Virus record (IMG/VR): IMGVR_UViG_3300033124_000584
Direction: 5' to 3' (one strand)
Source of the DNA: a virus
DNA length: 64,000 nt
Within the stretch, counting starts at the first letter, position 1. Every line of letters begins with the position of its first letter. The position numbers and the translations under genes were made by a program. This document shows positions 41,080-64,000 of this stretch, one piece after another. The notes under the pieces are model-generated. The model worked only from the letters and a program-made list of their open reading frames with translations. It searched no databases and was not told where the DNA came from.

Positions 41080-41104
41080 TTTTTTAACATCACCTTTGTA
41101 TCTA

Positions 41105-41112
41105 TCTAAATA
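41105..41112 (+). promoter_or_regulatory. Possible late promoter TCTAAATA heading the enzyme cluster
   Basis: TAAATA core 15 nt before ATG 41128, followed by SD AGGAG; weaker match than GATAAATA. Confidence 0.35.
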
Positions 41113-41127
41113 CTCGTAGGAGCCTAT

Positions 41128-41433
41128 ATGGATACAAAGAAACTAATAGCAGAAGCTAAAGCCCGCTTCAATCACAATTCTACAAAAGCCTATTTAAAAG
41201 ACAAATACGATAGTAAATTTATCGTTGCCGTTCAAAACGGATTATGGCGCGCCAATTTAGAAACTATCAATTTCTTAAATTCATCAACTGATACTGAAAT
41301 CATTCTAATTGATACTTTTAATAATCCAGTTAAAGTTATCAGACAAGAATTGTTAGATAAACTCAATACAGTTTATACAACAACTATGGAAGAATGGTAT
41401 AATGAATGGTCTGAATTAGAGAAAAAAAGATGA
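41128..41433 (+). CDS. Hypothetical protein (101 aa), possibly a fibre assembly factor
   Basis: ORF track; good SD; ATGA overlap with the next gene; function guessed from position only. Confidence 0.65.
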   Translation: MDTKKLIAEAKARFNHNSTKAYLKDKYDSKFIVAVQNGLWRANLETINFLNSSTDTEIILIDTFNNPVKVIRQELLDKLNTVYTTTMEEWYNEWSELEKKR

Positions 41434-42233
41434 GTAAAGGCGCATTATTATTTGCGTTTAACTCGCCCAAGTACAACTACTATGAAATGGCAGTTGCTAC
41501 GGCTAAACGTATTAACCATTTTTTAGATTTACCTGTCACTATAGTGACCGATAAAAAGTCGTTACCCGACATTATTGATTACACATTTGACAAAACTATT
41601 TTTACTGTAGCAGATGCGTCCAATAAACGTGATTGGGGAGTTTGGATCAACAAGGGAAGATTCCAAGCCTACGATTTAAGCCCCTATGATGAAACATTAT
41701 TGTTAGATACTGATTATATGGTAAATTCTGACAAGTTGCTAAAAACGTTTGAACTACCTACTGATTTTTGTTGTCACGATACTACTAGTTTTTTAATGCA
41801 TCCGGGTGTCCCGCAAGAAGTACTCAGTGTATATAGTTTCAAAACACTTTGGGCTACGGCTGTTAATTTTAAGAAAACTAAACGTGCTGAATCAATATTT
41901 GGTTCGTTAAAAATGATTCAAAATAATTTTAATCATTACGCAGATATACATGGATTTATATCAGCTACTTTTCGTAATGATTATGCATTGACTTTAGCAA
42001 CACGCATTGTTAACGGTCACACAACATTACCGCAAGATGTGATACCTTGGAATCTAGTTCATGTTGGTAAAAATACAACAATATATAGAAATAGTGATGA
42101 TCCATTAAACACTGAATATACTGTTATGTTTGATAATTGGATCAGGGGTAAAATTCGTAAAGAATATACTATTATTAAAAATATGGATTTTCATGTTATG
42201 AATAAAGAAAACTTTATGGAGTTAATTAAATGA
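41430..42233 (+). CDS. Putative GT-A-fold glycosyltransferase
   Basis: GALLFAFN...YYEMAVATAKRI and YDLSPYDETLLLDTDYMV (DxD motif). Confidence 0.65.
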   Translation: MSKGALLFAFNSPKYNYYEMAVATAKRINHFLDLPVTIVTDKKSLPDIIDYTFDKTIFTVADASNKRDWGVWINKGRFQAYDLSPYDETLLLDTDYMVNSDKLLKTFELPTDFCCHDTTSFLMHPGVPQEVLSVYSFKTLWATAVNFKKTKRAESIFGSLKMIQNNFNHYADIHGFISATFRNDYALTLATRIVNGHTTLPQDVIPWNLVHVGKNTTIYRNSDDPLNTEYTVMFDNWIRGKIRKEYTIIKNMDFHVMNKENFMELIK

Positions 42234-42985
42234 CAAGAGGATTCGTTATTATGGCTCAGGGAGATGATTATGTCAAATGTGCCAATACGCTTAAAGCAAG
42301 TATCAAACGAGTAATGCCCAAAGCTAATGTAACCATTGTTACTACAGAAATGTTACCACATGGAGATCAGGCACCTAATACTAATTGGAAACTTCAAAAT
42401 GATTGGCAAGTATATGAAGCAAGCCCATATGATGAAACTATCAAGTTAGAAGCAGATATGTATATACCTCGCAATATTGACCATTGGTGGGAGGTACTGT
42501 CAAACCAAGATGTTGTGGTGTCTAGTTTAATAAGAAACTTTAAACAAGAAATATCAGATGTTAGAATGTATCGTAGATTTATTGATGATAATAATTTACC
42601 CGATGTGTATAATGCAATTACATATTTTAAAAAATCAGACACAGCAAAACATTTTTTTGATATAGTAAGAGATGTTTTTGAAAATTGGAATGAATACAAG
42701 ACAATATTAAAATGTAACCCACAGGAAATAGCAACCACTGATTGGGCGTATTCTATTGCTTGTCATATTATCGGAATTGAAAAGACAATGCTACCAACGT
42801 TTACTGAAATGTCAATGATACACATGAAACAATATATTAATGGAACTGCTACTGAGAATTGGACTGATACCTTTATATATGAATGTTTACCAAATCAAAT
42901 TAGAGTACAAACTATTCCACAACAGTATCCATTTCACTATCATGTTAAGAACTTCTGTGATAAAATAGCTGAAAGTATAAAATGA
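42230..42985 (+). CDS. Putative GT-A-fold glycosyltransferase, paralog of the upstream gene with DxD altered to EAD
   Basis: RGFVIMAQ...YVKCA and YEASPYDETIKLEADMYI align with the upstream gene. Confidence 0.6.
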   Translation: MTRGFVIMAQGDDYVKCANTLKASIKRVMPKANVTIVTTEMLPHGDQAPNTNWKLQNDWQVYEASPYDETIKLEADMYIPRNIDHWWEVLSNQDVVVSSLIRNFKQEISDVRMYRRFIDDNNLPDVYNAITYFKKSDTAKHFFDIVRDVFENWNEYKTILKCNPQEIATTDWAYSIACHIIGIEKTMLPTFTEMSMIHMKQYINGTATENWTDTFIYECLPNQIRVQTIPQQYPFHYHVKNFCDKIAESIK

Positions 42986-43338
42986 GCATTGAAAACAACG
43001 AAGAAGAATACATTATATTATGGCAACCACCTAAATTAGAGCCTCCAGAATTTAGATTGTACTATGATGAACACGGTGCGGTAATATGTTATACCGGGGA
43101 TAAATCTGTAACTGGTAATTATATTGTTATTGACTCACTTACCTTTGCACAAGCAAGGCCTGATGTAAGAGTTATTAATGGTAAAATATCTACTGTTGCA
43201 CCTAATGCAGTCGTGCATAAATTAATGCCAAAAACTAGTGAGGGAATAGATTGTCACATGGAAGATATAAGTATACTTGTTGATAAAAAACATTACAAGA
43301 AAACACAAAAATGGAAATTAACTACCTATGAACTCTGA
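42982..43338 (+). CDS. Hypothetical protein (118 aa)
   Basis: ORF track; overlaps both neighbours; no recognised motif. Confidence 0.65.
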   Translation: MSIENNEEEYIILWQPPKLEPPEFRLYYDEHGAVICYTGDKSVTGNYIVIDSLTFAQARPDVRVINGKISTVAPNAVVHKLMPKTSEGIDCHMEDISILVDKKHYKKTQKWKLTTYEL

Positions 43339-44281
43339 TGATATTATTGATGTAGCAGACTTGGATTGTATATATTTAAGTTACGATGAACCACAGAAAG
43401 AAGAATTTTGGCTAAAGATTAAAAACATGGTGCCTTGGGCAAAACGTGTTGATGGTGTTAAAGGCAGTGATGCCGCACACAAAGCCGCAGGCGAAGCGAG
43501 TGATACTGAACGATTTATTTTAATCGACGGTGATAATATGCCTGACGAAAAATTTTTCAACATTCAGTTAAACTTCACTGGCAAAGACCCGTCATTTAAA
43601 AAAGCACAGTTTCGTTGGAAAGCACTAAACATTGTCAACGGTTTGCTTTACGGTAACGGTGGAATGAGTAGTTGGACAAAAGAATACGTTGCTAAAATGA
43701 AAACACACGAACATCAAACAGATGGTGATGTATCACGTATTGCTGATTTCTGTATGGGTGGTAATGATAATTTATATTGGGCCATGTATAATTGCTATAG
43801 CACAACATTTCCTAACTACACACCTTTTCAAGCATGGCGTGCCGGCTTCCGTGAGGGTGTTAAGATGAGTTTAGATAGAGGCGCAAAGCCAACAGTTAAT
43901 GCATTTAAAGAAATTGTTGCAAGTCGCAATTTAAATAATCTTACTATTTGGCACAATGTAGGAATGGATGTAGATAACGGACAATGGGCAATTATGGGAG
44001 CACGAATGGGAACTCATATGACTATGCTTACTGATTGGGATCATACCAACGTACAGTGGTTTGATAATTACATTGAGATGTGGGAAAAAATTAAAAACGA
44101 AGATCCTATTGAATTATCAGAATCATATGGAATTGAACTAAACACAAAGTTGGGTTTGCCTATGTGTGCGTTAGACAGCGAACAAAGTAAATTTTTTAAA
44201 CGTCACTATAAATCAGATTACCACAACTTAGACCCATTAGTAACGGAGATGGATGTTATTCGAAAAATCGAAGGATGGTAA
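43328..44281 (+). CDS. Putative GT-A-fold glycosyltransferase
   Basis: CIYLSYDEP, RVDGVKGSDAAHKAA and FILIDGDN (DxD); TPFQAWRAGFREGVKM. Confidence 0.6.
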   Translation: MNSDDIIDVADLDCIYLSYDEPQKEEFWLKIKNMVPWAKRVDGVKGSDAAHKAAGEASDTERFILIDGDNMPDEKFFNIQLNFTGKDPSFKKAQFRWKALNIVNGLLYGNGGMSSWTKEYVAKMKTHEHQTDGDVSRIADFCMGGNDNLYWAMYNCYSTTFPNYTPFQAWRAGFREGVKMSLDRGAKPTVNAFKEIVASRNLNNLTIWHNVGMDVDNGQWAIMGARMGTHMTMLTDWDHTNVQWFDNYIEMWEKIKNEDPIELSESYGIELNTKLGLPMCALDSEQSKFFKRHYKSDYHNLDPLVTEMDVIRKIEGW

Positions 44282-45675
44282 TGAGTAACGAACAACAACG
44301 AATTAAAGACATTAAGATCAAGATTGAGAATGAGGTAGGTCCCACATTCTGTCTTGCCAAATGGCACCATGTAACTATGTACTTGCAATCAGGCGAGACA
44401 CATAGTTGTTATCACCCGCAACCTCATAAGATTCCTCTAGAAGAACTAAAAGATAACCCATCAGCATTACATAATACGCAACAGAAAAAAGAAGAACGTA
44501 AACTAATGCTTGATGGTGGCAAACCAACTGGTTGTCAGTATTGCTGGAATATTGAAGCAATGGGGCCTGACTATATAAGCGACAGGCATATACGTAACGC
44601 TAGTATTTTTACTGAAGAACGATATGAACAAACTGTTAAGGGTCCCTGGAATCAAAACATAAATCCAGAATACTTAGAAATTAATTTTGGTAACGAATGT
44701 AACTTTAAGTGTGGTTACTGTCACCCTAAGTATTCTACTAGTTTTTATAATGAGATTAAAAAACACGGCCCAGTAACTTCCGTGAAGAATCATAGATGTG
44801 ATATTGACTGGATGACATTGTATCAACGTGAAGAAGAAAATCCATATGTTGATGCATTTTGGGAGTGGTGGCCTGAACTACGCAAGACATTGAATATTAT
44901 GCGTGTAACTGGTGGTGAACCTACAATGCACACTAGCACTTGGAAATTATTAAAAGAAATTGAAACAAATCCAATGCCCTGGTTAGAATTAAACATAAAC
45001 AGCAACTTAGGTACAAAGACAGCATTAGTTGAAAAACTAGCACATAGTGTTAAGAAATTAGTAGATGATAAAAAGATTCGCGGGTTCAAACTATTTACTA
45101 GTTTAGATACATGGGGACCTAAGGCTGAATATATTCGTACAGGTTTAGATTTGGAATTGTGGGAAACAAATTTTCATACGTATCTACAGAATACTAATAG
45201 TCCAATCACATTTATGATTACTTTCAATATTTTTAGCGTTACTACATTTAAAGAGTTCTTGGGTAAGTTTTTAGAATGGCGTAAACAATATGGTTGGTAT
45301 GAAAGTCATAAAGAACATCGTGTGCGTTTTGATACACCATATCTACGTGACCCTATTCAATATGATATGAACATTTTACCTAAAGATGAATTCATGCCCT
45401 ATATGCATGATGCATTGACATTCATGGAAGCAAACGTAGACGATAATCGTGCTGATGCTTTTACTACTATTGAGTTTGAGAAATTTAAACGTGTAGTAGA
45501 TTACATGGCTGACACTAAATACGCAGAGTCAAAATTAATTGAAGGTCGTAGAGACTTTTACAATTGGTTTAATGAATTAGATGAGCGCAGAGATACAGAT
45601 ATGTTAGCTATCTTTCCAGAATATTTAAATTTTTATAGACTATGCCAAGAAGTTAATCAAATGAATCCAAAATGA
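44281..45675 (+). CDS. Radical SAM protein with an N-terminal twitch/SPASM-like domain (rSAM-1)
   Basis: CNFKCGYC (CxxxCxxC), VTGGEPT, N-terminal FCLAKW...SCYH...GCQYC; start set at the TAATG overlap (track gives 44275). Confidence 0.9.
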   Translation: MSNEQQRIKDIKIKIENEVGPTFCLAKWHHVTMYLQSGETHSCYHPQPHKIPLEELKDNPSALHNTQQKKEERKLMLDGGKPTGCQYCWNIEAMGPDYISDRHIRNASIFTEERYEQTVKGPWNQNINPEYLEINFGNECNFKCGYCHPKYSTSFYNEIKKHGPVTSVKNHRCDIDWMTLYQREEENPYVDAFWEWWPELRKTLNIMRVTGGEPTMHTSTWKLLKEIETNPMPWLELNINSNLGTKTALVEKLAHSVKKLVDDKKIRGFKLFTSLDTWGPKAEYIRTGLDLELWETNFHTYLQNTNSPITFMITFNIFSVTTFKEFLGKFLEWRKQYGWYESHKEHRVRFDTPYLRDPIQYDMNILPKDEFMPYMHDALTFMEANVDDNRADAFTTIEFEKFKRVVDYMADTKYAESKLIEGRRDFYNWFNELDERRDTDMLAIFPEYLNFYRLCQEVNQMNPK

Positions 45676-46949
45676 GTAAGAAAAAATCTAATAAAATCTC
45701 AGTTGAAGATTTAAATAATAGCAAGACACTATGTGTTGTGCCTTGGATTCATATTCATACTAACCCTAGTGGAATTGCCGCACCCTGTTGTATTGCAGAA
45801 TCTTGTGCAACTGAAGACGGTGTAGGTAATTCTCGAACTCAAGGGTTACAGGAGATCATCAATTCTGAAAAAATGAAAAGTTTGCGGTTAGATATGATGG
45901 CAGGAGTTAAAAATCCAGAATGTATTAAATGTCATCAGCATGAAGATCAAGGTGTAAAAAGTTTTCGCAATATGATTAATGATGAGTTTGCACATTATTA
46001 TGATGAAATAAATTCAACTAACAAAGACGGATCAATTAATAACTTTAAAATGAGATACTTTGACATTCGTTTTAGTAATATATGTAATTTTAAATGTAGA
46101 ACATGTGGATCAGGTTTTAGTACGCAATGGGAACAAGAAGATTTAAAAAATAACGTTTGGTATTCAAAAGTAATACCTAAAAATGATAATAAAGAATTTT
46201 TACGTCAAGTTGTAGAACAGACAGAGTTTATGGAGACCGCATACTTTGCAGGGGGTGAACCATTAATTACGGAAGAACATTACATCTTATTGGAAGAAAT
46301 GATTCGCAGTAAAAGAACTAAAATTAAATTGCGCTATAATACTAACTTAAGTAATCTCAAGTTTAAAGATAAAGATTTAATTTCACTTTGGAAACACTTT
46401 GACCATAAGGTAAACATTTATGCCAGCATTGACCATTATGGTGATCGTGCTGAATATATTCGTCATGGTACTGACTGGGGTGTAGTTGAATCTAATTTTA
46501 AATTAGTAAAAAAGACTCCCTTTATTTCATTACAAATGAACACCGTATTAAGTGTGTTTAACATATTAACTATACATGAATTTTATCAGTATCTATATGA
46601 TAAGAAAATGTATTCAAATAAAGACTCAGCTTATACGTTATACAATATGTCAACTCCTGAATATTTAGCTTGTCATATTCTTCCACCGGATATGAAACAA
46701 AAAGCTAAAGACAGTTTAGAAAAAACAGTTAATTTTTTAAAATCTAAAAAATTTAAGGTACAACAGGTGCAACAAGTATCTGATGCTATTCCTTGGGTTA
46801 TGTCAAAAGATTCATGGGACCAACACAAAATGCAATTTAGAAATGAAATTAAAAGATTAGATAAAATTAGAGATGAAAACTTTAAACAGACATTCCCTGA
46901 GTTGGCTATTTTATTAGAACCCGAATATAAAAGATTGTGGCCAGTATGA
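45672..46949 (+). CDS. Radical SAM protein with an N-terminal twitch domain (rSAM-2)
   Basis: LCVVPWIH...APCC...CIKC, CNFKCRTC, YFAGGEP, YNTN. Confidence 0.92.
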   Translation: MSKKKSNKISVEDLNNSKTLCVVPWIHIHTNPSGIAAPCCIAESCATEDGVGNSRTQGLQEIINSEKMKSLRLDMMAGVKNPECIKCHQHEDQGVKSFRNMINDEFAHYYDEINSTNKDGSINNFKMRYFDIRFSNICNFKCRTCGSGFSTQWEQEDLKNNVWYSKVIPKNDNKEFLRQVVEQTEFMETAYFAGGEPLITEEHYILLEEMIRSKRTKIKLRYNTNLSNLKFKDKDLISLWKHFDHKVNIYASIDHYGDRAEYIRHGTDWGVVESNFKLVKKTPFISLQMNTVLSVFNILTIHEFYQYLYDKKMYSNKDSAYTLYNMSTPEYLACHILPPDMKQKAKDSLEKTVNFLKSKKFKVQQVQQVSDAIPWVMSKDSWDQHKMQFRNEIKRLDKIRDENFKQTFPELAILLEPEYKRLWPV

Positions 46950-48172
46950 ACAAAAATTATTTATTAAACGAGAGCAAAACTTTTTGCATGTTCCCCTGGG
47001 TACACTTAAACGTAACACCAAAAGGTGATATCTATCCTTGCTGTAGTAATGACTATACCAAACCTTTTGGTAATACAAAAGAAACTACATTAAAAGAAGC
47101 ATTTAACAGCCCACCAATGAAACAATTGCGTTTGGATATGTTAGCTGATAAGAAAAATGATATCTGTAACTTTTGTTATAAGCACGAAGAAGCAGGTCCG
47201 CATAGCTTTAGAAATTATAGCAAAGAACATTTTGGTAAGCACTTTGATGGAACAGTTCCCACTACATTGGAAGATGGAACTGTTCCTGAATTTAAAATGC
47301 ATTACTTTGACATTCGTTTTAGTAACATTTGCAATTTTAAATGTAGAACATGTGGGTCGGAGTTTAGTAGTCAATGGGGAGCAGAGATGCGAGCCAATCA
47401 CGATCCAAAACATCCTATTGTGATTCATGCCGATGAAAAGGGTAATCTATTACGTGAAGTATTAGAACAAGTTGAACATATTGATTTGGCATACTTTGCA
47501 GGTGGTGAACCTACCTTAACTGAAGAACATTATATAATGTTGGAAGAAATGATTCGTAAAGGTCGCAGTGATATTGTACTACGATACAACACAAACGCTA
47601 GTAACATCAAATTCAAAGACTATGATTTATTAGATATGTGGAAATACTTTAAGAAGATTGAATTGAGTTGTAGTATTGACCATTACGGGGAACGTGCTGA
47701 ATGGTTACGTCATGGAACTGATTGGGGTGTAGTTGAAAGCAATTTACTCAAGTTCCGTGAGTTAGACTATGTTAGTTTTCAAATGAATACTGTATTCAGT
47801 ATCTTTAATTACAGTACAATTGGTGAGTTCTATCAGTACTTAAAAGATAAGAATATCGTTCGTAAAGAGGACTGGTACCATAGTTTGTACCTAGCAGTAC
47901 ATCCTAGTTACTATTCGGGTAAAAGTTTACCTAAAGAATTAAAAGTCGAAGCCGCAGAAAAAGCATTAGCTTGGGCAAAGTCTAACGAAGGTGACGGTAC
48001 ATCATTAAGTAGATTGGTAACTGATGCTGTAAACTTTGCGGCAGATGATGATACCTGGACTGAAAATAAAGAAACATTCTTTTTACATACAGGTTCAGGT
48101 GATAGGATTAGAGGTGAAAGTTTCTGGAAAACTTTCCCTGAATTAAATAAATTACGTGATTTGACGGAGTAA
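46946..48172 (+). CDS. Radical SAM protein with an N-terminal twitch domain (rSAM-3), close paralog of rSAM-2
   Basis: FCMFPWVH...YPCC...CNFC, CNFKCRTC, YFAGGEP; ATGA overlap supports start 46946 (track gives 46937). Confidence 0.92.
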   Translation: MNKNYLLNESKTFCMFPWVHLNVTPKGDIYPCCSNDYTKPFGNTKETTLKEAFNSPPMKQLRLDMLADKKNDICNFCYKHEEAGPHSFRNYSKEHFGKHFDGTVPTTLEDGTVPEFKMHYFDIRFSNICNFKCRTCGSEFSSQWGAEMRANHDPKHPIVIHADEKGNLLREVLEQVEHIDLAYFAGGEPTLTEEHYIMLEEMIRKGRSDIVLRYNTNASNIKFKDYDLLDMWKYFKKIELSCSIDHYGERAEWLRHGTDWGVVESNLLKFRELDYVSFQMNTVFSIFNYSTIGEFYQYLKDKNIVRKEDWYHSLYLAVHPSYYSGKSLPKELKVEAAEKALAWAKSNEGDGTSLSRLVTDAVNFAADDDTWTENKETFFLHTGSGDRIRGESFWKTFPELNKLRDLTE

Positions 48173-48174
48173 CA

Positions 48175-49446
48175 ATGCAAGATACAATAGTAGTAGAAAA
48201 TTTAGTAAAACATGGCAAACACTTTTGCGTTTTGCCCTGGGTACATTTTCACTCATGGCCTGACGGACGAGTGATGCCATGTTGCGTCGCCGATAGCGGC
48301 ATGCCTGTTGCTGAACTAAAAGAAGATGAATCAATCATTCAAATGATGAATAGTGATGACTTTAAAAAGATTCGTTCAGCAATGTTGAATGACGAACCAG
48401 TTGAAGCATGTAAGCGTTGCTATGACTTAGAATTAATGGGTACATGGACAATGCGTCAAAGTCACAATAAGCGTAAAGGCTTAGAGTATGTCAAGGAAAT
48501 TAGTGAAATAACTAGTGATGACGGTACCATCAGTGATTTTAAAATGAAATATATGGACCTGCGTTTTAGCAACATGTGTAATATGAAATGTCGCAGTTGC
48601 GGTCCCGGATGCTCAAGTTTATGGGCACAAGAATTTATGGATGAGCGTGGCGCTGAAGTGTTTGACCAATACTTTAAGACAAAAAAGATTGTTATCAATA
48701 AGGCAGAAGAAGTTGGCTTTATGAACAAACTGAAACCATACTTGAAAGATGTAACTGAAGTGTATTTTGCCGGTGGTGAGATTATCATTACTCCTGAACA
48801 CTACGAATGCTTAGACTATTGGATTGAGAATGGATTGAATGAACAGATTGAGTTAACATATACAACTAACTTTAGTTCATTAAAGTACAAAGATAAGGAC
48901 TTAATTGGTTATTGGAAAAAGTTTCCCAAGTTAAAAATTTGGGCTAGCTTAGATGGTATGGGTGAAACAGCAGAATTGATTCGTAAAGGCACTGATTGGG
49001 ACCGTATCGTTAAGAATATCAAAGCAGTCAAAGAACAAGTACCACATGCAGAGTTTCAGATTACTCCCACAATTAGTATTTGGAATATATTTCACTTTCC
49101 TGACTTCTTTGACTATATGATTGACAATAAATTCATTGATACCAAGAGTAGTCCACGATTTAATCTAGCAACTAACCCATGGTATGCAAATATTATGATT
49201 CTTCCGGTTCATGTTAAACGTAGACTTGCAGAATTGTATCGGGTGTACCAAAACAAATATAAAGATAATGTCGATATCTACAACGGCTTTAAGATGATTA
49301 TCTACAACTTGACTGTTGGCGACGAGAACAAAGGTGGCATACTAGAATTCAAACAATTCAATGATGAGTTAGATCAGTTTAGAGATGAAAAATTTGAGGA
49401 CATTTGTCCAGAAATTAAAGAGGTATATGAATGGGCAAAAAGCTAA
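48175..49446 (+). CDS. Radical SAM protein with an N-terminal twitch domain (rSAM-4)
   Basis: FCVLPWVH...MPCC...CKRC, CNMKCRSC, YFAGGE. Confidence 0.92.
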   Translation: MQDTIVVENLVKHGKHFCVLPWVHFHSWPDGRVMPCCVADSGMPVAELKEDESIIQMMNSDDFKKIRSAMLNDEPVEACKRCYDLELMGTWTMRQSHNKRKGLEYVKEISEITSDDGTISDFKMKYMDLRFSNMCNMKCRSCGPGCSSLWAQEFMDERGAEVFDQYFKTKKIVINKAEEVGFMNKLKPYLKDVTEVYFAGGEIIITPEHYECLDYWIENGLNEQIELTYTTNFSSLKYKDKDLIGYWKKFPKLKIWASLDGMGETAELIRKGTDWDRIVKNIKAVKEQVPHAEFQITPTISIWNIFHFPDFFDYMIDNKFIDTKSSPRFNLATNPWYANIMILPVHVKRRLAELYRVYQNKYKDNVDIYNGFKMIIYNLTVGDENKGGILEFKQFNDELDQFRDEKFEDICPEIKEVYEWAKS

Positions 49447-51714: not shown

Positions 51715-51717
51715 ATT

Positions 51718-55503: not shown

Positions 55504-56623
55504 CAAAGATAACACCTTGTTTTTAGGAGGACAAGAGTATTACTTGCGACCATTATCCTACACTAAAGATATTCATAATTTTGAGGATACTGATTACTGG
55601 TATGCTGAATTTTTTAACCACGATTCAATTCATCATTTGACTAATCCAGATGTATTGTCACCTGATACGTTAGAAAGATTGCAGAACAAAACATGTGTAT
55701 TAATGCTTAACAATGCACATGAAGCATTTCATACAGTAGTAAAACCAATATATGATATTGCAATTAAACAATTAAACATTCCACCAGAACAGATTGTATT
55801 AATTAGTGAATCAGCAGTAATAAACAAAGAAGTAGAAAAAGTAGCAAATGAATATACTCTAGCAAAGATTAAAACAGAATGGATGCGATTGTTTGAACAC
55901 GACACTATGGTAGTTGAACACAATCCAATAGCTACATTAGAACATAAACAATATACTAAAAAGTTTATTAGTTTGAATAGACGATGGAGATTACATCGAC
56001 CTGCATTAGTTGCATTATTAGAATTAAATGGATTAATTGATAATGGTTATGTCAGTCTTGCTAGAGCAGATGACGGGAAAGATTGGGATGTGTTTTTTGA
56101 TGAAATGACTTGGACATTAAGACACAATAGTGATTTTGTCAATATCTTTGTACACAATAAAGACAGAGTTAAGAATATACCGGAAATGAAATTGGATCAA
56201 TCAGACATGACCATTAACCATGCACATGTGCTTACTGATTCAACTGACATGTATTATGAGAACACGTATTTTAGTGTAATATCAGAAACCAATTTCTTTA
56301 AAGAAACAGGTGAGGGTTTGTTTGTTAGCGAAAAGATTTTTAGACCAATATTAAAAAAACACCCATTTATACTTTTATCTAGACCACACACGCTAAATAC
56401 GATGCAAAACATAGGGTACAAAACATTTGGATCTATCATCAATGAAGAATATGATAGTGAAGAAGATGATTGCAAACGAATGTTAATGATAATTGATGAA
56501 ATAAAAAGATTATGTAATTTATCCGATATTGAACTACAATTATTTTTAAATGAAGCCAAACATATCACAGAATACAATTATCAGGTACTTTTAAATAAAC
56601 GAGAATTTTTAACAAAATTATGA
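55490..56623 (+). CDS. Putative glycosyltransferase (GT10-like family paralog, closest to 3163-4227)
   Basis: FISLNRRWRLHRP, VSLARADD, SVISETNFF...VSEKIFRP..KKHPFIL...GYKTF...EEYD. Confidence 0.55.
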   Translation: MALINKDNTLFLGGQEYYLRPLSYTKDIHNFEDTDYWYAEFFNHDSIHHLTNPDVLSPDTLERLQNKTCVLMLNNAHEAFHTVVKPIYDIAIKQLNIPPEQIVLISESAVINKEVEKVANEYTLAKIKTEWMRLFEHDTMVVEHNPIATLEHKQYTKKFISLNRRWRLHRPALVALLELNGLIDNGYVSLARADDGKDWDVFFDEMTWTLRHNSDFVNIFVHNKDRVKNIPEMKLDQSDMTINHAHVLTDSTDMYYENTYFSVISETNFFKETGEGLFVSEKIFRPILKKHPFILLSRPHTLNTMQNIGYKTFGSIINEEYDSEEDDCKRMLMIIDEIKRLCNLSDIELQLFLNEAKHITEYNYQVLLNKREFLTKL

Positions 56624-57417
56624 TTACAGATTTAAAAAAATATAAAAGAGTGTTTGCATTTGGGTGTAGTTTTACATGCTATCTATATCCTACTTGGGCA
56701 GACATAATTTATAAATCTATGAGCCCTAATGTAGAATTTTATAATTTAGGTCAATCCGGCGGCGGAAATCTTTTTATATCACATAGAATAGTAGAAGCAA
56801 ATAGAAAATATAAATTTAATGAAGATGATTTAATTATACTAATGTGGTCGACCTATGCTAGAATTGATTTTTATAGAACTGATTGGGGTTGGATAACACC
56901 CGGTAATATATATACTCAAAATCAACTAAGTGAATCCACTGTCAAGGAGATAGAGGATTTAAATTGGTTTTTAATGCGTGATTTATCAACTATAGATTTA
57001 ACGACTAATTATCTCAATAATCTACCATGTGATACTATTAAACTTATGTCAGTTCCATTTGATTATGAACAATTAGAAAGATTTAATGAATTAAATAAAA
57101 TTACAAAATCTATATTTGATTTATATTCAGACTTGAATACTGATTATCCAAAATCATTATTTGACTATTTGGGTAGAAAATGGAACTCAATAATTAGATA
57201 CACTGATTCAGATATGCCAATCGACTATCACCCTACACCAGTGGATTATAAAAATTATTTAATTGACTGTGGTGTACCTATATCACAAGAAGCAATTGAT
57301 TATGCACACGAATCATTAAACAAACTATTAACCCCTAATATATCTAAATTAGACGCAATTAATATGTTTCCTGATTGTGATGACAGAGTTTCTAAATCTC
57401 GAAAACATTTATGGTAA
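56620..57417 (+). CDS. SGNH/GDSL-like hydrolase or acyltransferase
   Basis: AFGCSFT, NLGQSGGGN, DYHPTP. Confidence 0.55.
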   Translation: MITDLKKYKRVFAFGCSFTCYLYPTWADIIYKSMSPNVEFYNLGQSGGGNLFISHRIVEANRKYKFNEDDLIILMWSTYARIDFYRTDWGWITPGNIYTQNQLSESTVKEIEDLNWFLMRDLSTIDLTTNYLNNLPCDTIKLMSVPFDYEQLERFNELNKITKSIFDLYSDLNTDYPKSLFDYLGRKWNSIIRYTDSDMPIDYHPTPVDYKNYLIDCGVPISQEAIDYAHESLNKLLTPNISKLDAINMFPDCDDRVSKSRKHLW

Positions 57418-58412
57418 CTCTGTATTATAATTTAATTGATGGTATTGATATTGATAAGATTACAAACGATGTTATTAACAAAATTCCAGACAAGGTTGTT
57501 ATCTTTAATGAATTAGAATGGGAATTAAAACAACTCACAATTCAATTTATTCAATTTTTAAAAGATAGAAATGTTCAAATAGAAATTATATTTGGAAGTT
57601 TTCACACCAAATACTACGATGATTATTGTGACCGTTTAGGATTAAATTATAATAGTCTAACGTTTTGGCCTACTTATTGGATGCCGTGGACTGAAATGTG
57701 CTTGAATAGTGTAATAGACCACACTACTTATCAAGTTAATACTGATTTTAAATACCCTTTTATTTGCTTAAACAATAAAAATCATACACATCGTTGTGCT
57801 TTAATTGACCATTTGTCAAAGTATAATCTTATTGACAGTGGGGTAGTTACTTGGCATAAGTTTCCTAACTCTACGTATGAATATGATTTTAAATATTATG
57901 ATGATAGTATTAGATTAATAGATGATGATTTTGTTATTAAACTAGATTCATTTTTGTTACCTCATCAATGGCATGAATCTTTTTTACATGTTATTGGTGA
58001 GGCAACAATTAATGCAGATTTTATTACAGAAAAAACAGTAATCCCGTTATTACTGAAAAAACCCTTTGTCTGTATTTCTACTAAAAATTGGAATAAAAGG
58101 TTAAAGGATTTAGGGTTTGTGTTATATGATGAAATAATTGACTACTCATATGATTCCCATGATAATGTTGAAGTAAGAGCAGATAAGTTATGTGAAAGCA
58201 TTAGCAAACTATCAACTAATTACAGTGAGTTATATAAAATAATTGAACCTAAAATTCAACATAATTATAATAGATGTTTAGAAATTATTAAGGATAAAAC
58301 ATTTATCCCTTCAACTGTTATTGATAGAGTTACGCAAATGTCAAATAGTAATTATATGTCAATGCACACAGATCCTCGATATGAAAATATAGTGAGAAAT
58401 TGCAATGATTAA
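57411..58412 (+). CDS. Putative glycosyltransferase (GT10-like family paralog)
   Basis: YPFICLNNKNHTHR; HVIGEAT...FITEKTVIP..LKKPF...GFVLYDEIIDYSYD. Confidence 0.5.
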   Translation: MVTLYYNLIDGIDIDKITNDVINKIPDKVVIFNELEWELKQLTIQFIQFLKDRNVQIEIIFGSFHTKYYDDYCDRLGLNYNSLTFWPTYWMPWTEMCLNSVIDHTTYQVNTDFKYPFICLNNKNHTHRCALIDHLSKYNLIDSGVVTWHKFPNSTYEYDFKYYDDSIRLIDDDFVIKLDSFLLPHQWHESFLHVIGEATINADFITEKTVIPLLLKKPFVCISTKNWNKRLKDLGFVLYDEIIDYSYDSHDNVEVRADKLCESISKLSTNYSELYKIIEPKIQHNYNRCLEIIKDKTFIPSTVIDRVTQMSNSNYMSMHTDPRYENIVRNCND

Positions 58413-59442
58413 AATTACAGATGTTTGGACTCTCAATTTTAATTTATTCGTAGATGACATTATTAATAACATTCAGTATGTTAAAATGGTTATACTTGAT
58501 TGTTTGCATGAAGTTGACCACTACGATAAAGTTTTTAATAAACACGACATAGATAGATTATTAAATGTTACTCAGTATTATAACGTTCCGGTAAAAATTT
58601 TAACTTCAAACAATAATAAAAATTTGGCTCTTGCAAGATTTTTAAACGTTTCAATTATTTGTTGGGATACATTCTGGTTTGAAAGAACATATCGAATATG
58701 GTTACTGCACGATGAATATAATCAAACAAAGGGCATTGACATAAAAGATGATAATGTTTGTAAGGATTTTGAATTAAACTATCCATTCATATGCCTCAAT
58801 AATGTTGTAAAACTTCATAGAAGTATAATGATGGACTTACTTGCTAAACATGAATTGTTGAATCAAGGTGCAATAACATGGCGCGGGGTATCTCATAGTG
58901 GGATCAATAATTATAAGTATAAACACTGGGATCCCAAAATATTAATTTTAGATCAAAATTTGGATGTAAAATTTAATCAAGAAACAATGCCAATAGAATT
59001 TAATCATTCATTTATGCAATTGGTTACGGAAACAGAAGAAAACGAATCATTTTTTAGTGAAAAAACAACAACTCCTATTCTTTTGAATAAACCTTTCTTA
59101 GTTGCATCTAATGTTGGTTTCCATCGTACATTGGAACAACTAGGCTTTCAATTATATACTGAACTATTTGATTATTCATTTGACGATGAAACGGATATTG
59201 TTATCCGATATGAAAAAATAGCTGAGAATGTAAAGCGTTATGTAGGGATAAGCCCATCTGAGTTAAAACAGCAATACAATAAAGTAATTGATAAAATTAC
59301 CTACAACAGAAAACTTGCAATGAAATATGCAACTACTGTTCCGGATGAAGTTAGACAACTACATTTGTTGGTCGAAAAAAATAACATAGATTACAATGGC
59401 CCACTAAATAAAATCAAATACTTAATAAACGGAAATCTATGA
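58405..59442 (+). CDS. Putative glycosyltransferase (GT10-like family paralog, sister of the upstream gene)
   Basis: YPFICLNNVVKLHR; QLVTETE...FFSEKTTTP..LNKPF...GFQLYTELFDYSFD. Confidence 0.5.
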   Translation: MIKITDVWTLNFNLFVDDIINNIQYVKMVILDCLHEVDHYDKVFNKHDIDRLLNVTQYYNVPVKILTSNNNKNLALARFLNVSIICWDTFWFERTYRIWLLHDEYNQTKGIDIKDDNVCKDFELNYPFICLNNVVKLHRSIMMDLLAKHELLNQGAITWRGVSHSGINNYKYKHWDPKILILDQNLDVKFNQETMPIEFNHSFMQLVTETEENESFFSEKTTTPILLNKPFLVASNVGFHRTLEQLGFQLYTELFDYSFDDETDIVIRYEKIAENVKRYVGISPSELKQQYNKVIDKITYNRKLAMKYATTVPDEVRQLHLLVEKNNIDYNGPLNKIKYLINGNL

Positions 59443-60632
59443 AAAAAGTAGCAATGATTGGTGTGGGTAAATTGGGCCAAGACTGTGCAGAAGTAATGGC
59501 AGAAGCAGGAAATAATGTAGTTGGATATGATGTTGAACCTAGACTTCCAATGTTCCCTATGAAGGATACGATTGAGGAAGCAGTTAAAGACAGAGACTTA
59601 ATTTTTATTGCGGCCCCTACCCCGCATGACCCAATATATGGAGGTGAGACCCCTACTAGTCATTTACCTAATAAAGATTTTGACTATACAATAGTTACTA
59701 ACATTTTAAAAGAAGTCAATAAGCATGTTAATAAAAGTCAATTGGTTGTCCTCATTAGTACCGTGCTACCCGGAACAGTTCGCAACATCTTAGAACCTTG
59801 TATCACTAATGCAAGATTCATTTACAACCCTTACTTAATCGCTATGGGTACCGTAAAATGGGATATGGTTAACCCAGAAATGGTAATCATAGGTACAGAA
59901 GATGGTAGCATTACTGGTGACGCTAGTGAACTAATTGACTTTTATAAACAATTTATGCAGAACGACCCTCGATATGAAATTGGTACTTGGGACGAAGCAG
60001 AAGCAATTAAAATATTTTATAACACTTTTATTAGTACAAAAATTGCGTTAGTTAATATGATACAAGATGTTGCTGAAACAAACGGCAATATGAATGTTGA
60101 TGTTGTCACTAACGCATTAGCAAAATCAACACATAGGATAATGGGCCCTGCATATATGATAGCGGGATTAGGGGATGCAGGAGCATGTCATCCTAGAGAT
60201 AATATTGCACTACGTTACCTAGCAGACAGATTAGATTTGGGTTATGATTTGTTTGATGCAATTATGACAGCCAGAGAAAAACAAGCAGAACGTATGGCAT
60301 TAAAATGTTTAACGTATGGTAAAAATGTTACTATAGTGGGTAAAGCATACAAACCAAAAGTTCCATATATCAATGGTTCTGCTAGCATGTTAGTAGGGTA
60401 CTATGTTGAAAAACATGGTGGCACAGTTAACTACTATGATATACATACAGGTGATTTGGATTTAAAATCAGAATGGACTAATGTATATCTAATAGGGTAT
60501 TGGGAAGAATACGTGTCTAACTTATTATTTAATATAAATTCAACTGTAATTGATCCGTGGAGAAAACTCACAAGTAAACAATTCATGGGTAACATCGTAC
60601 ATTATGGAAATACCAGACGTAATACAATTTAA
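59439..60632 (+). CDS. Nucleotide-sugar 6-dehydrogenase (UDP-glucose/GDP-mannose dehydrogenase family)
   Basis: MIGVGKLG, IAAPTP, STVLPGT, YNPY, EAEAIKIFYNTFISTKI, and GDAGACHPRD (catalytic Cys), GKAYKP. Confidence 0.92.
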   Translation: MKKVAMIGVGKLGQDCAEVMAEAGNNVVGYDVEPRLPMFPMKDTIEEAVKDRDLIFIAAPTPHDPIYGGETPTSHLPNKDFDYTIVTNILKEVNKHVNKSQLVVLISTVLPGTVRNILEPCITNARFIYNPYLIAMGTVKWDMVNPEMVIIGTEDGSITGDASELIDFYKQFMQNDPRYEIGTWDEAEAIKIFYNTFISTKIALVNMIQDVAETNGNMNVDVVTNALAKSTHRIMGPAYMIAGLGDAGACHPRDNIALRYLADRLDLGYDLFDAIMTAREKQAERMALKCLTYGKNVTIVGKAYKPKVPYINGSASMLVGYYVEKHGGTVNYYDIHTGDLDLKSEWTNVYLIGYWEEYVSNLLFNINSTVIDPWRKLTSKQFMGNIVHYGNTRRNTI

Positions 60633-61785
60633 ATACGGTGAAGTATATCCATCTGAACATGTATTGTATTCGATGCGTGAACAAACGTTTAATATTTGGA
60701 CTGATCTAAGAAATCATGCTAAATCTATTCATGTAATATACGCCGGCGCCAACTCAGACTATGCATTTTTTCGCCGATCTAAATTTGGGGTAGAAGCAGA
60801 AATCAGAGAAGAATACAATAAAGGCAAACGAAACTTTGTGTTTCAATGTCTTGCAGAAGGAATGATGGTAGATAATATACTACTGATTGATGATGTTATG
60901 GATTCATTATCAGATATTTTATCTAATATTGCGGTCTTCTATGTTACATCAGATCATTGTGGAGATCAATCATATATAAACATATGTAATAAACATTACA
61001 GATTAAATCGAATTAATATATTAGCAGGTGCTGGATTTGAATTTGGTTCTAAAAGTTTTTTAAGTTTTGCTAAAGAATATGTACCAGGACATAGATTAAA
61101 AAAGTTTTTATGTTTTAATAAAGTTACTAGGCAACATAGAATTAATCTGTTAGAAAAACTACTGAGACTTAATTTGGTTGATACAGCATATTATTCCTTT
61201 AATATTGAACCTGACAACTTGAATGTATTAAAGAATGATAGTAGAGGAACATTTGATGAAATTATAAAAATAGAAAATAAACTCCCATTAACGTTAAACA
61301 TGACACTGGAAAGAAACAATCCGGTAGATGTGAGATTGGATGATTTATCATATTTTGATAATTCTTATTTTTCTGTAGTAACAGAAACTTTATTTTATAA
61401 CCTAGATAATAGGAAATCGAATGAACTCTATATGAACGTAATTGATACGTATCCGGGTGTATTTTTTAGTGAAAAGATATATAAGTGTTTGGCTTTAAAG
61501 CATCCTTTTGTGTTGGTATCTACTTATGGGTCTTTGGCTGAATTAAGAAAACGTGGATATAAAACATTTTATCCATATATTGATGAATCATATGATGATA
61601 TCAAGGATGATGATTCCCGATTAAATACAATTACTAATGAAATAAATAGACTGTGTAAGTTGTCTTCGGAAGAATGGATTCAATTTACATCTAATATAAA
61701 AGAAATTGTAGACCATAATTTCATTCATTTTAGTAACACTACTGACTTTCGAATAACCAAAAACGTAGTAAGTATGCTTAAATGA
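60604..61785 (+). CDS. Putative glycosyltransferase (GT10-like family paralog)
   Basis: FLCFNKVTRQHR; SVVTETLFY...FFSEKIYK..ALKHPFV...GYKTFYPYIDESYD; first ATG 60604 preferred over the track start 60550. Confidence 0.55.
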   Translation: MEIPDVIQFKYGEVYPSEHVLYSMREQTFNIWTDLRNHAKSIHVIYAGANSDYAFFRRSKFGVEAEIREEYNKGKRNFVFQCLAEGMMVDNILLIDDVMDSLSDILSNIAVFYVTSDHCGDQSYINICNKHYRLNRINILAGAGFEFGSKSFLSFAKEYVPGHRLKKFLCFNKVTRQHRINLLEKLLRLNLVDTAYYSFNIEPDNLNVLKNDSRGTFDEIIKIENKLPLTLNMTLERNNPVDVRLDDLSYFDNSYFSVVTETLFYNLDNRKSNELYMNVIDTYPGVFFSEKIYKCLALKHPFVLVSTYGSLAELRKRGYKTFYPYIDESYDDIKDDDSRLNTITNEINRLCKLSSEEWIQFTSNIKEIVDHNFIHFSNTTDFRITKNVVSMLK

Positions 61786-61817
61786 GTGTATAATTATAAA
61801 AATAAAGGAGTTACCCG

Positions 61818-64000
61818 TTGGAATCTAACATCACGCTATCAGATGCGGATCAAGTAATTAAAGGAAAAGTTGTTTTAAAAGAAAGACCTACCTCTGATAT
61901 TGCAGACGAACGACACAAAGCAATGATGGATGCTATTGCTCCTTACGCAAAAAAATCTGTACAAAAAAACTTAACTCCTGTTTATGTAGATTACAAAACA
62001 CGCAACACTAAGATGGTATTAGTATTGTGCCCTGAATGGTCCCCGTACATGCCGCCTTTCTCATTGGCAAAATTATCTGGCATTGCTAAGGCATCAGGAT
62101 ATGAAACAACAATCATGGATTTAAATGTTAGAGCTTTTAATGCTCATAAAAATGATTGGATTCCAAATAAAAAACTCCCGTTTAGACTATGGGATCCTGC
62201 CGCATCATGGCATTGGTTAGGTGATACTTACGCCAAAGATATTCACCCGGTACTTGAACCTTTATTATCACAAGCAATTGATGAAATCGTAGCATTAAAA
62301 CCTGATGTTGTTGGCTTTAGTGTTTATTATATTAGTGAAGAACCAACTAAATGGATGTGCCAAGAATTAAAACGTAGATTACCTAACGTAAAAATTGCAG
62401 TAGGTGGACCTAATGTACACAAACACTGGTTTGCAATTCACGAATACTATGATTATGTTATTGTGGGTGAAGGGGAAAATAATCTATTAGTCATGCTTGA
62501 CGAAATTGAAGAAAAGACAGAAGTTCAGTATCCACGTGTATTAACTCAACCTGAAGACCAGCGTATTAATATTAATAATCTGCCTATGCCGGATTATGAA
62601 AGTATTGACTTTTCACAGTATGAAATTCCAAACGGGATCAATAGTGAAATTAGTCGAGGATGTACTGCTAAATGCACATTCTGTGAAGAAACACATTTCT
62701 GGAAGTATCGGCAACGTCAAGCAGTTGACTTGATTACTGAAGTCGAATGGCTTTATTATAATAAAGGTACTAATATTATTTGGTTCATCGATAGTCTTAT
62801 TAATGGTAATATAAATGAGTTAAGAGCCTTTGCATTAGCACTTAAAGAAAAGAAATTGAAAGTTAAATTTGCAGGGTATGCACGACATGATGGTCGTATG
62901 GATAGGGCATACTTACAAGATTTAGCGGACGGCGGTGCCCTGCGATTTAACTTTGGTAGTGAGTCCGGAAGCCAAAAAGTATTAGATGATATGGCTAAAG
63001 GTGTTACTATCAAAGAGATGGAACAAAACTTTATTGATTGTAAAGAGCTTAATATTGGTTGCGACACTAATTGGATTGTGGGTTTTTCTACAGAAGAATT
63101 ACAAGACTATTCAGATACAATGACACTACAATGGCGTATGCGTGACAGCATTCATAATATGGGGTTAGGTGTTGGATTTGCAGTTGGCCCAGAAACTATT
63201 GCCGGACAGAATCCACATAAGTTTAATGTTAGTTATCAAAAATATCAAGGTCATTGGATTACACAGGATTTGAGTAAGGGAGGCACACACTTAATGGTGC
63301 GTGTAAAAAATATTCATATTTGGGCAGATAATATGGCACATTGTAAAGATGGCCCGCCTATCACTTATCCTATTCGTTTTTCATTGGCTAAAGACCACTA
63401 TAAAATTAAATTCAATAATCCTGAATGTCGTAAAGAAATGAATTATGAAAAGTTTGATTATAATATCATACCACCAGTTGATCCTAACAATAAATTTGCA
63501 AATCAGTTAGTTAACGAAGTTTGGCCATTACTAAGAAATTTATGGAGAGCAAGAGGCGGATATGAAACAGAAATACATTATAATCCTGAGATTGATTTAA
63601 AAGAATTTGGTACACAATTTGGCCCGGGAATGTTTACTGCTGTTTATAAATTTAAAATTGATGATGATGGTAAGTGGGAAGCAGATTTTGATATGCATTT
63701 TAATCAAAATGTAGATAACCCAGAAGATAATAGATTGCCTCCGCCGGAAGGTCGTAAAGGTCCATTCTACGCACAGGATTATTCAAGGGCGCAGTCAAAC
63801 ACTGTTAAACGTGCAAGAAAATTAGCAAAGCCAAAGTGGTCAGATGAAGAAGGTCGTAGTGGGCAGGACTTTACTGATTTATTAAATGAAGAAGAATATT
63901 TGAATAAAAATGTTGACTTCTCATTCAATTTACATTATCAAGGAACGGGTGATTGGAGTAACTATAGAGATTACGAGATAAGAGTATCTGATAAAAAACG
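61818..64000 (+). CDS. Cobalamin-binding (class B-type) radical SAM enzyme 2 (3' end truncated by the window)
   Basis: Not in the ORF track (no in-window stop). TTG start 7 nt after SD AAGGAG; hand translation gives MPPFSLAKL...PDVVGFSVYY...IAVGGP...GEGE, EISRGCTAKCTFCEE (Cys at 62661), WFIDSLING, FGSESGSQKVL; open to 64000. Confidence 0.9.
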   Translation, partial: MESNITLSDADQVIKGKVVLKERPTSDIADERHKAMMDAIAPYAKKSVQKNLTPVYVDYKTRNTKMVLVLCPEWSPYMPPFSLAKLSGIAKASGYETTIMDLNVRAFNAHKNDWIPNKKLPFRLWDPAASWHWLGDTYAKDIHPVLEPLLSQAIDEIVALKPDVVGFSVYYISEEPTKWMCQELKRRLPNVKIAVGGPNVHKHWFAIHEYYDYVIVGEGENNLLVMLDEIEEKTEVQYPRVLTQPEDQRININNLPMPDYESIDFSQYEIPNGINSEISRGCTAKCTFCEETHFWKYRQRQAVDLITEVEWLYYNKGTNIIWFIDSLINGNINELRAFALALKEKKLKVKFAGYARHDGRMDRAYLQDLADGGALRFNFGSESGSQKVLDDMAKGVTIKEMEQNFIDCKELNIGCDTNWIVGFSTEELQDYSDTMTLQWRMRDSIHNMGLGVGFAVGPETIAGQNPHKFNVSYQKYQGHWITQDLSKGGTHLMVRVKNIHIWADNMAHCKDGPPITYPIRFSLAKDHYKIKFNNPECRKEMNYEKFDYNIIPPVDPNNKFANQLVNEVWPLLRNLWRARGGYETEIHYNPEIDLKEFGTQFGPGMFTAVYKFKIDDDGKWEADFDMHFNQNVDNPEDNRLPPPEGRKGPFYAQDYSRAQSNTVKRARKLAKPKWSDEEGRSGQDFTDLLNEEEYLNKNVDFSFNLHYQGTGDWSNYRDYEIRVSDKK

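Follow-up and report, generated by a model that had tools for sequence, protein, structure and literature searches.

The 64,000-nucleotide (nt) stretch of viral DNA analysed here (the window; bases 5024–69023 of the 86,269-bp IMG/VR viral contig IMGVR_UViG_3300033124_000584, CheckV completeness approximately 17%) derives from a partial genome of a freshwater jumbo myovirus distantly resembling Rak2 and carries, directly behind its tail-fibre genes, a long operon that very probably encodes a pathway of sugar activation, radical tailoring and glycosyl transfer. At the level of family and fold its products make, tailor and transfer activated sugars, and all of them are soluble. The fuller statement, that these enzymes form a late, cytoplasmic glycan assembly line decorating virion proteins and above all the adjacent fibres, has in our judgement an even chance of being correct.

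From position 41128 to the window end 21 co-oriented open reading frames (ORFs) were found on the plus strand. These include candidate glycosyltransferases (GTs), radical S-adenosylmethionine (SAM) enzymes and nucleoside diphosphate (NDP)-sugar enzymes and are listed here by window position, followed by one ORF from the contig beyond the window.

41128–41433, plus strand: g01, conserved protein of 101 amino acids (aa)
41430–42233, plus strand: g02, GT-A-like (GT8/glycogenin-like), DTD motif
42230–42985, plus strand: g03, paralogue of g02, EAD in place of DxD, phrog_1903
42982–43338, plus strand: g04, conserved protein of 118 aa
43328–44281, plus strand: g05, GT-A fold, invariant DGD, highly conserved core member
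44275–45675, plus strand: g06, N-terminal-twitch radical SAM protein (NF033640)
45672–46949, plus strand: g07, N-terminal-twitch radical SAM protein
46937–48172, plus strand: g08, N-terminal-twitch radical SAM protein
48175–49446, plus strand: g09, N-terminal-twitch radical SAM protein
49431–50408, plus strand: g10, radical SAM protein with a C-terminal Cys-rich region
50401–51714, plus strand: g11, GT-B paralogue with a variable N-terminus
51718–52695, plus strand: g12, GDP-mannose 3,5-epimerase (GME)
52692–53579, plus strand: g13, SGNH-like (GCSWT...N...HP)
53572–55503, plus strand: g14, cobalamin-binding radical SAM protein, KedN5-like below the family cut-off
55490–56623, plus strand: g15, GT-B glycosyltransferase fold (modelled)
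56620–57417, plus strand: g16, SGNH-like
57411–58412, plus strand: g17, GT-B paralogue
58405–59442, plus strand: g18, GT-B paralogue
59439–60632, plus strand: g19, NDP-sugar 6-dehydrogenase
60550–61785, plus strand: g20, GT-B paralogue, likely start ATG 60604
61818–64000, plus strand: g21, cobalamin-binding radical SAM protein, running off the window
Outside the window, L008:5184–10277 (contig 71483–76576): g24, ORF of 1697 aa

The junctions from g01 to g20 measure, in order, −4, −4, −4, −11, −7, −4, −13, +2, −16, −8, +3, −4, −8, −14, −4, −7, −8, −4 and −83 nt, with the last becoming about −29 nt if g20 starts at ATG 60604. Overlaps are present at 17 of these 19 junctions and the widest gap is 3 nt, so that the ORF map bears out an earlier annotation of this DNA (hereafter the original prediction), which described 21 co-oriented genes with gaps of at most 3 nt among the first 20. 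The same annotation proposed a 23-kb operon; the packed 23 kb within the window stands, but the operon does not end there and continues for at least three further genes, to a length of at least 27 kb and at least 24 genes. On the contig g21 is complete at 759 aa and is followed by the SGNH-like g22 (249 aa, weak DUF6071 match), a NodU/CmcH-type carbamoyltransferase (498 aa, Pfam E 5e-49, phrog_1601) and the 1697-aa g24. Identities to the latter are 46–65% in most of the best 120 of its 1238 database relatives, which reach 2866 aa; a few of them carry DUF4185. A multi-enzyme interpretation of g24 is unsupported, its g05-like C-terminal part being without a DxD motif. Ten unassigned proteins gave no Pfam match at E<=10, and the PHROGs search was informative only to the extent of matching g03 to phrog_1903, a family of unknown function. 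In the ESM Atlas g02, g05 and g24 fell in viral dark-matter clusters only, except for one neighbour cluster of g02 that carries PF11051.

The supply of activated sugars is documented by two enzymes. The GME-like epimerase of the original prediction is strongly confirmed, as g12 aligns with Arabidopsis GDP-mannose 3,5-epimerase (PDB 2c59) over 316 residues (E 3e-93), with 316 bits against 99 bits to the next family, and keeps equivalents of Cys145, Tyr174, Lys178 and Lys217 in the aligned SSAC, YGWEK and EKAPAA segments. We take Cys145 and Lys217 to be the acid-base pair of this enzyme and Tyr174 and Lys178 its dyad. Profile matches of g19 to UGDH (E 5e-19) and GDP-mannose dehydrogenase (E 2e-15), between which nucleotide specificity is not separable, likewise confirm the predicted sugar-nucleotide dehydrogenase. 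In relatives a g19-like dehydrogenase and a g20-like GT-B protein form one in-frame fusion of 780–785 aa, seen in loci L017 (17049–19319) and L010 (7326–8942) and on one 235-kb contig, which ties the dehydrogenase to that family of transferases by the Rosetta-stone principle; in the window g19 and g20 (59439–61785) are separate ORFs in different frames. The two SGNH proteins originally predicted are supported in their motifs and weakly in their profiles. An SGNH pattern of G-C-S-x-T, Asn and His-Pro is common to g13, g16 and the out-of-window g22, and G-C-S-x-T, N74 and H272-P273 are invariant in 21 sequences, while the profile retrieves GDSL acylhydrolases from the PDB at weak E values of 0.5–4.5 only. 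By this motif alone the three proteins may be described as SGNH-like.

Eight GT candidates were considered, comprising the GT-B proteins g11, g15, g17, g18 and g20 and the GT-A-like proteins g02, g03 and g05. The five GT-B proteins are paralogous over their C-terminal approximately 200 residues (BLAST E 1e-5 to 1e-35) and their family has at least 383 members in the database, none with a Pfam domain. An AlphaFold model of g15 built from 37 sequences reached a predicted local distance difference test (pLDDT) score of 93, and the 27 matches found by Foldseek in the PDB at E<=1e-3, among them SdgB, TarM, glycogen synthase, T4 beta-glucosyltransferase (BGT), MurG, OtsA and PimA, were GT-B throughout; in the AlphaFold database the matches were GT1-family clusters. 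Exhaustive alignment with VIA-align placed GT-B chains in all 50 top positions (Z 7.2–10.1), including T4 BGT (10.1), POGLUT2 (9.6), Gtf3 (9.5) and T4 alpha-glucosyltransferase (9.0). Fucosyltransferases scored 8.3–8.9 (5zoi 8.9, FUT9 8.8, FUT11 8.6), level with GT-B enzymes that act on DNA, on lipids or in protein O-glycosylation. No Glyco_transf_10 match was obtained for g11, g15, g17, g18 or g20 at E<=10, and the Glyco_transf_10 profile itself retrieves no PDB sequence. The 'GT10-like' label of the original prediction, and with it the argument leading from GDP-L-galactose to a GT10 enzyme, lacks support at the level of the family.

The g05 model (pLDDT 83) has a GT-A nucleotide-diphospho-sugar transferase fold and matches hyaluronan synthase, HddC, PBCV-1 A64R, TarP and SunS (E 5e-4 to 1e-2), with D67-G-D69 invariant; because the GT-A fold is common to nucleotidyltransferases, its glycosyltransferase activity is putative. 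PDB profile searches with the GT-B family and with g05 gave no match. A joint g02/g03 profile matched glycogenin (GT8) in 16 of 17 PDB hits, the best being glycogenin-2 at a weak E of 0.005, with the DTD of g02 aligned to the glycogenin DAD and EAD present in g03. At fold level the models and paralogy, with the weak g02/g03 profile match, support five GT-B and three GT-A-like proteins. Of the predicted eight GTs of two folds, g15 proved GT-B and g05 GT-A in structure comparison, and none of the eight has a counterpart among the Pfam GT families.

The high Z scores of the two T4 DNA glucosyltransferases against g15 are a point in favour of DNA hypermodification, in which the GTs would glycosylate phage bases and the radical SAM enzymes would make or remodel the attachment point or the sugar. 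A complete relative of 364 kb that carries the same operon has a single ThyA-family gene, with the PFN motif of a canonical thymidylate synthase, and no Tet/JBP match, the latter being weak evidence as the Tet/JBP search was silent in every control genome too; the known anchors of DNA glycosylation are therefore not evident. Furthermore, the operon lies within the late structural module, away from replication genes, eight GTs with acyl and carbamoyl tailoring go far past known DNA glycans, and neither GME nor uronic-acid donors are known to take part in DNA modification. Modification of DNA consequently appears improbable.

The radical SAM genes number seven. Against the curated cut-off of 170 bits for NCBIfam NF033640 (N_Twi_rSAM), g06, g07, g08 and g09 score 313.7, 379.8, 366.5 and 368.5 bits respectively and are all members. 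In these four proteins a Pfam SPASM/twitch match (residues ~17–88) precedes the Radical_SAM domain, and across 18 diverse N-twitch sequences C17, C36, C77 and C80 are invariant together with a CX3CX2C motif (C132, C136 and C139). Of the five twitch-type enzymes initially proposed, four have the twitch at the N-terminus; g10, with C-terminal cysteines and 27.6 bits against the family, is not a member of it and is a separate radical SAM protein. The two predicted cobalamin-binding enzymes are upheld, as both domains exceed the Pfam cut-offs in g14 (B12-binding 34.6 bits, Radical_SAM 48.6 bits) and in g21 (46 and 49 bits). The nearest relatives of g14 are KedN5-type C-methyltransferases, at a score far under the family cut-off.

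Enzymes of the SPASM/twitch and B12 kinds are common maturases of ribosomally synthesised and post-translationally modified peptides (RiPPs), g21 and g14 weakly match RiPP C-methyltransferase models, and the operon adjoins large repetitive virion proteins. These observations would be accommodated if the radical SAM enzymes modified proteins directly, by RiPP-like crosslinks, epimerisation or C-methylation, with the sugar enzymes forming a separate activity. However, every RiPP model score is far under its cut-off and no precursor-like gene is present; the even conservation of g01 and g04 (101 and 118 aa, Cys-poor and folded-looking) rules these out as RiPP precursors. Moreover, radical SAM and GT-B genes are interleaved in relatives, as on contigs assigned to Haliscomenobacter (L096 and L116), where the two alternate, and bacterial N-twitch genes co-occur with GT2, GMD and carbamoyltransferase genes. 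Direct protein modification is accordingly the least probable of the alternatives weighed here, and a very improbable one.

Cellular N-twitch homologues share 21–57% identity and come mostly from Bdellovibrionota metagenome-assembled genomes (MAGs). The families met most often in the 89 ORFs flanking them are other radical SAM (8), GT2 (4), SPASM (4), GMD (2), carbamoyltransferase (2), B12-binding (2) and flagellin (2) genes. The phage operon itself was met on 'MAG' contigs of Haliscomenobacter EUL_031 (L096, L116) and Rickettsiales MED657 (L108, L110), of which L108 and L110 also carry fibre-like genes; all of these are probably mis-binned phage. Among cultured phages, the Ralstonia jumbo phage RsoM2USA encodes, within its genes 199–203, a g06-like radical SAM protein (34% identity, E 2e-82) between two SGNH-like genes and adjoining a carbamoyltransferase gene (44% identity), and an array of weaker relatives is present in Vibrio phage K566.

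The position of the operon was compared across related phages with reference to the following features upstream of g01.

17684–37081: ORF of 6465 aa, Ser plus Thr 19%, flanked by the gp6-like baseplate gene and the fibre module
37252–37872, plus strand: 206-aa virion-module protein, phrog_11259, the most conserved of the neighbourhood (median identity 92%, 42 related loci)
37903–39135, plus strand: tail-fibre-like protein, Ser plus Thr 21%, weak Peptidase_G2 (intramolecular chaperone) C-terminus
39146–40099, plus strand: Ser/Thr-rich (28%) fibre-module protein, upstream of the operon in nearly all related loci
40121–41079, plus strand: frameshifted second copy of the 39146 gene (65% identity)
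41104–41113, plus strand: ATCTAAATAC, late-promoter-like box approximately 15 nt 5' of the g01 ribosome site TAGGAG

As originally predicted, the operon follows straight after fibre genes, since the fibre-module genes at 37252–41079 precede g01. Database searches with g08 retrieved 4319 clusters at E<=1e-10, the best 120 of which have 75–98% identity and lie on contigs of up to 363 kb. At least 124 viral contigs in IMG/VR encode a g08 relative, and 80 loci fetched from these were used to compare synteny. In approximately 50 of the 80, genes like those at 37252, 37903 and 39146 are followed by g01–g10 in the order of the window. A more distant clade (g08 53–61% identity) keeps g02, g03, g05, g06, g08, g09 and g10 behind 37903-like fibre genes. 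Within the near clade median identities are 74–81% for g05, g06, g08, g09 and g10, 63–73% for the fibre genes and 41–49%, the lowest, for the GT-B paralogues. Downstream of g10 the gene content is reshuffled among GT-B paralogues, SGNH-like proteins, B12 radical SAM enzymes, dehydrogenase and epimerase. Extra ORFs of the relatives carry Pfam matches to GMD-like proteins (2), dTDP-4-dehydrorhamnose 3,5-epimerase (RmlC), NDP-hexose C-methyltransferase domains, NeuB, DegT aminotransferase, FkbM methyltransferases (2), 2OG-Fe(II) oxygenases (2) and short-chain dehydrogenases/reductases. A fixed core with shuffled downstream sugar enzymes marks a glycan locus whose inner part is constant and whose outer part varies.

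The radical SAM array itself varies from about four to six genes, as an extra, divergent g08-like copy (40–54% identity) is present around locus position 8800–10000 in L020, L022, L026, L029, L046, L054 and others, and other relatives are without g07. Six relatives have an ORF of approximately 224 aa between g08 and g09 (for example L053:11224–11898), and one unmatched ORF among the relatives is an HNH endonuclease.

Very strong conservation of the core is what would be expected of enzymes acting on a fixed small substrate, and twitch and B12 radical SAM enzymes, a carbamoyltransferase of the TobZ/NodU kind and sugar tailoring typify the pathways of aminoglycoside and nucleoside antibiotics. 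The product might then be a free small molecule, such as a soluble oligosaccharide or an aminoglycoside- or nucleoside-like metabolite acting against competitors, against defence or in signalling. The fast-varying GT repertoire, however, better suits an exposed surface structure under selection, the linkage to fibre genes is conserved, and an exporter, a resistance gene and a scaffold-forming gene (inosose/cyclitol synthase) were looked for among the operon products and not found. We regard a free metabolite as quite improbable.

Indications of timing came from short boxes upstream of the genes. The ATCTAAATAC box followed by TAGGAG is kept in approximately 45 distinct related loci with differing flanks, which substantiates the late-promoter-like motif at 41104–41113 noted in the original prediction. 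Three exact copies of AGATAAATA are present in the window, all on the plus strand and just 5' of structural genes, one of them at 37872 ahead of the tail-fibre-like gene at 37903. More generally, GATAAATA(C/T/A) is enriched 11–24-fold over the 60 nt leading up to ORF starts and is a marker of structural genes both in the window and in the 364-kb relative (G001). In the latter, 12 of the 13 copies of GATAAATAC are found no more than 60 nt 5' of ORF starts, ahead of baseplate, fibre-module and other genes, and none lies ahead of gp46, gp47, gp55, DNA polymerase or ThyA. Variant boxes including GCTAAATAC occur in the head module, and related TAAATA boxes precede genes of the baseplate, fibres and head. 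The late promoter of T4, TATAAATA, was rejected as the box used here, being strongly depleted (1 copy against approximately 16 expected), and a generic scan for sigma-70 promoters and terminators was uninformative. A gene for a gp55-type late sigma factor is present in the window. These patterns suggest that GATAAATA(C/T/A) is likely to be the late promoter of this lineage and, as ATCTAAATAC is conserved and resembles boxes ahead of structural genes, the operon most likely has a late-class promoter of its own.

Across 26 products no 19-residue window reached a mean Kyte-Doolittle value of 1.6 or more, indicating that no membrane helix is present, and no Pfam family of initiating phosphoglycosyl transferase, flippase, polymerase or transporter/exporter was detected in the operon products. 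The absence of these functions and of any membrane protein is difficult to reconcile with remodelling of the host envelope, in which the glycans of lipopolysaccharide, capsule or glycoproteins (flagellin, for instance) would be built or changed during infection on lipid carriers or proteins of the host, with a possible use in superinfection block, altered lysis or progeny adsorption. The late-type box and the constant place behind fibre genes are also a poor fit. The enzyme set nonetheless resembles O-antigen and capsule clusters, and cytoplasmic peripheral GTs work on lipid-linked intermediates without transmembrane helices. In a Pseudobdellovibrionaceae MAG (L123:6102–12359) a g06-like radical SAM gene (53% identity) also has a flagellin gene on either side, although this flagellin link was found in only one of four bacterial loci with g06-like genes. 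Envelope remodelling is unlikely, though less so than the three alternatives described above.

Decoration of the virion is the most economical interpretation given the position behind fibre genes, the late-type box, the soluble enzymes and the lack of a hydroxymethyl-pyrimidine route. In the pathway we propose, g12 would convert host GDP-mannose to GDP-L-galactose or GDP-L-gulose, and g19 would oxidise an NDP-sugar to a uronic acid, presumably used by the GT-B domain fused to it in relatives. The enzymes g06–g09 and g10 would perform C-H radical chemistry on a sugar or nucleotide-sugar (oxidation, deoxygenation, epimerisation or formation of C-C bonds) and the two cobalamin radical SAM enzymes would C-methylate, whilst the SGNH-like proteins and the NodU-type carbamoyltransferase may attach O-acyl and O-carbamoyl groups or trim them. 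The oligosaccharide would then be the work of the three GT-A-like and five GT-B enzymes. Its conserved inner structure would be the product of the core (g02, g03, g05, g06 and g08–g10), with the downstream set serving as a fast-changing decoration kit. The acceptor would be soluble and made late, and the likeliest candidates are the fibre proteins of the tail, or other virion proteins, with genes just upstream. The complex, unusual glycan foreseen in the original prediction is thus retained in its building and tailoring enzymes (GME, dehydrogenase, carbamoyltransferase and GT folds), though not in its GT10 logic.

Several points weigh against decoration of the virion by such a glycan. The acceptor is inferred, and the promoter assignment draws on analogy of motifs. 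Even with the cut-off relaxed to E<=10, Pfam GT families match none of the eight GT candidates; two (g15 and g05) were modelled, and the remainder were assigned by paralogy or a weak profile match. The nominal top match of g15 is a DNA enzyme, T4 beta-glucosyltransferase, tied with protein O-glycosyltransferases and others. The N-twitch family NF033640 is without an assigned substrate or reaction, and a phmmer search of the PDB with g08 gave zero matches, so that a solved structure is undetectable by sequence. Finally, as peripheral-membrane GTs need no transmembrane helix, lipid-linked acceptors are possible.

Upstream of the operon, on the minus strand, are genes for gp46/gp47-like SbcCD and the gp55-type late sigma factor; baseplate hub, gp25 and gp6 homologues also lie upstream, as do the 6465-aa ORF and several fibre-module genes rich in Ser and Thr. 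Identity of the gp6 homologue to gp6 of Rak2-like and other jumbo myoviruses is 31–33%, and a 6067-aa counterpart of the 6465-aa ORF is present in the 364-kb relative. In the 40121–41079 copy the frameshift is near codon 28, with residues 1–27 in one frame and 29–317 in another. Beyond the 3' end of the operon the contig has genes for a Gram-negative porin-like protein (PF13609, E 7e-23; L008:13816–14733), a MoxR-like AAA ATPase (L008:15954–17057) and a DUF2201 metallopeptidase/VWA protein (L008:17307–18590). Megablast comparison with 50,697 phage records gave zero nucleotide matches to the region, and near-identical DNA was found in freshwater (riverine, lake and other) metagenome runs from eight studies, some of which possibly represent the source sample.

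A pathway of at least 24 genes with seven radical SAM enzymes is a conserved trait of an abundant uncultured phage lineage. We propose, tentatively and at somewhat less than even odds, that this large clade of jumbo phages from fresh water coats its fibres with an oligosaccharide whose inner sugars are made by N-twitch radical SAM enzymes and whose outer kit is swapped. If so, NCBIfam NF033640 would gain a function and a substrate class, and new sugar structures could be expected on phage particles, among them L-galactose or L-gulose as well as uronic, C-methyl and carbamoyl sugars. The glycan would be the first of any virus to be tailored by radical SAM enzymes, with new chemistry (C-C branching, deoxygenation, epimerisation, C-methylation), and its conserved core and variable decoration kit may bear on host recognition and on evasion of hosts or grazers. 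The mini-cluster of Ralstonia phage RsoM2USA offers a culturable entry point. In the literature we found no account of jumbo-phage operons combining radical SAM and GT genes, and no paper on NF033640, on N-terminal twitch enzymes or on their reaction. Radical SAM genes were merely counted in marine T4-like genomes (Nishimura 2017), and the lineage treated in the 'moraphage' paper is a different one that lacks radical SAM enzymes.

Several known systems invite comparison with the operon. Particle glycosylation by virus-encoded enzymes is established for giant eukaryotic viruses and, since 2023, for mycobacteriophages, in each case with a small number of ordinary GTs. Giant viruses combine sugar-nucleotide synthesis of their own with GTs, as in the PBCV-1 capsid glycans, which involve A64R, and the Mimivirus fibril glycans, and to our knowledge no radical SAM tailoring occurs in them. 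The match between the g05 model and the capsid glycosyltransferase of PBCV-1 (2p72/2p73) is limited to the fold, and these are viruses of eukaryotes. Radical C-H chemistry and C-methylation of sugars are performed in antibiotic pathways by BtrN, DesII, AprD4, NeoN and enzymes of the GenK/Fom3 type, which carry twitch Fe-S or cobalamin domains; here, in contrast, the auxiliary domain is N-terminal and the context is viral rather than a secondary-metabolite cluster, and membership of g06–g09 in NF033640 gives a fold and not a function. The T4 alpha- and beta-glucosyltransferases are likewise phage GT-B enzymes and are among the best nominal matches of g15. They are, however, single, early enzymes and glucosylation of T4 DNA needs hydroxymethylcytosine, whereas no hydroxymethylcytosine route was seen in the complete relative and the pathway described here is probably a late one, of at least 27 kb. 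In mycobacteriophages, according to the summary of Freeman et al. 2023 in PMC12619734, phage GTs decorate the C-termini of capsid and tail tube proteins in the host cytoplasm. The acceptor was demonstrated by experiment there, whereas it is inferred in the present case. The mycobacteriophage system reportedly employs few GTs and no radical SAM enzyme, cobalamin enzyme, GME or carbamoyltransferase. With plant and algal GME, finally, g12 shares its catalytic residues and differs in being encoded by a phage.

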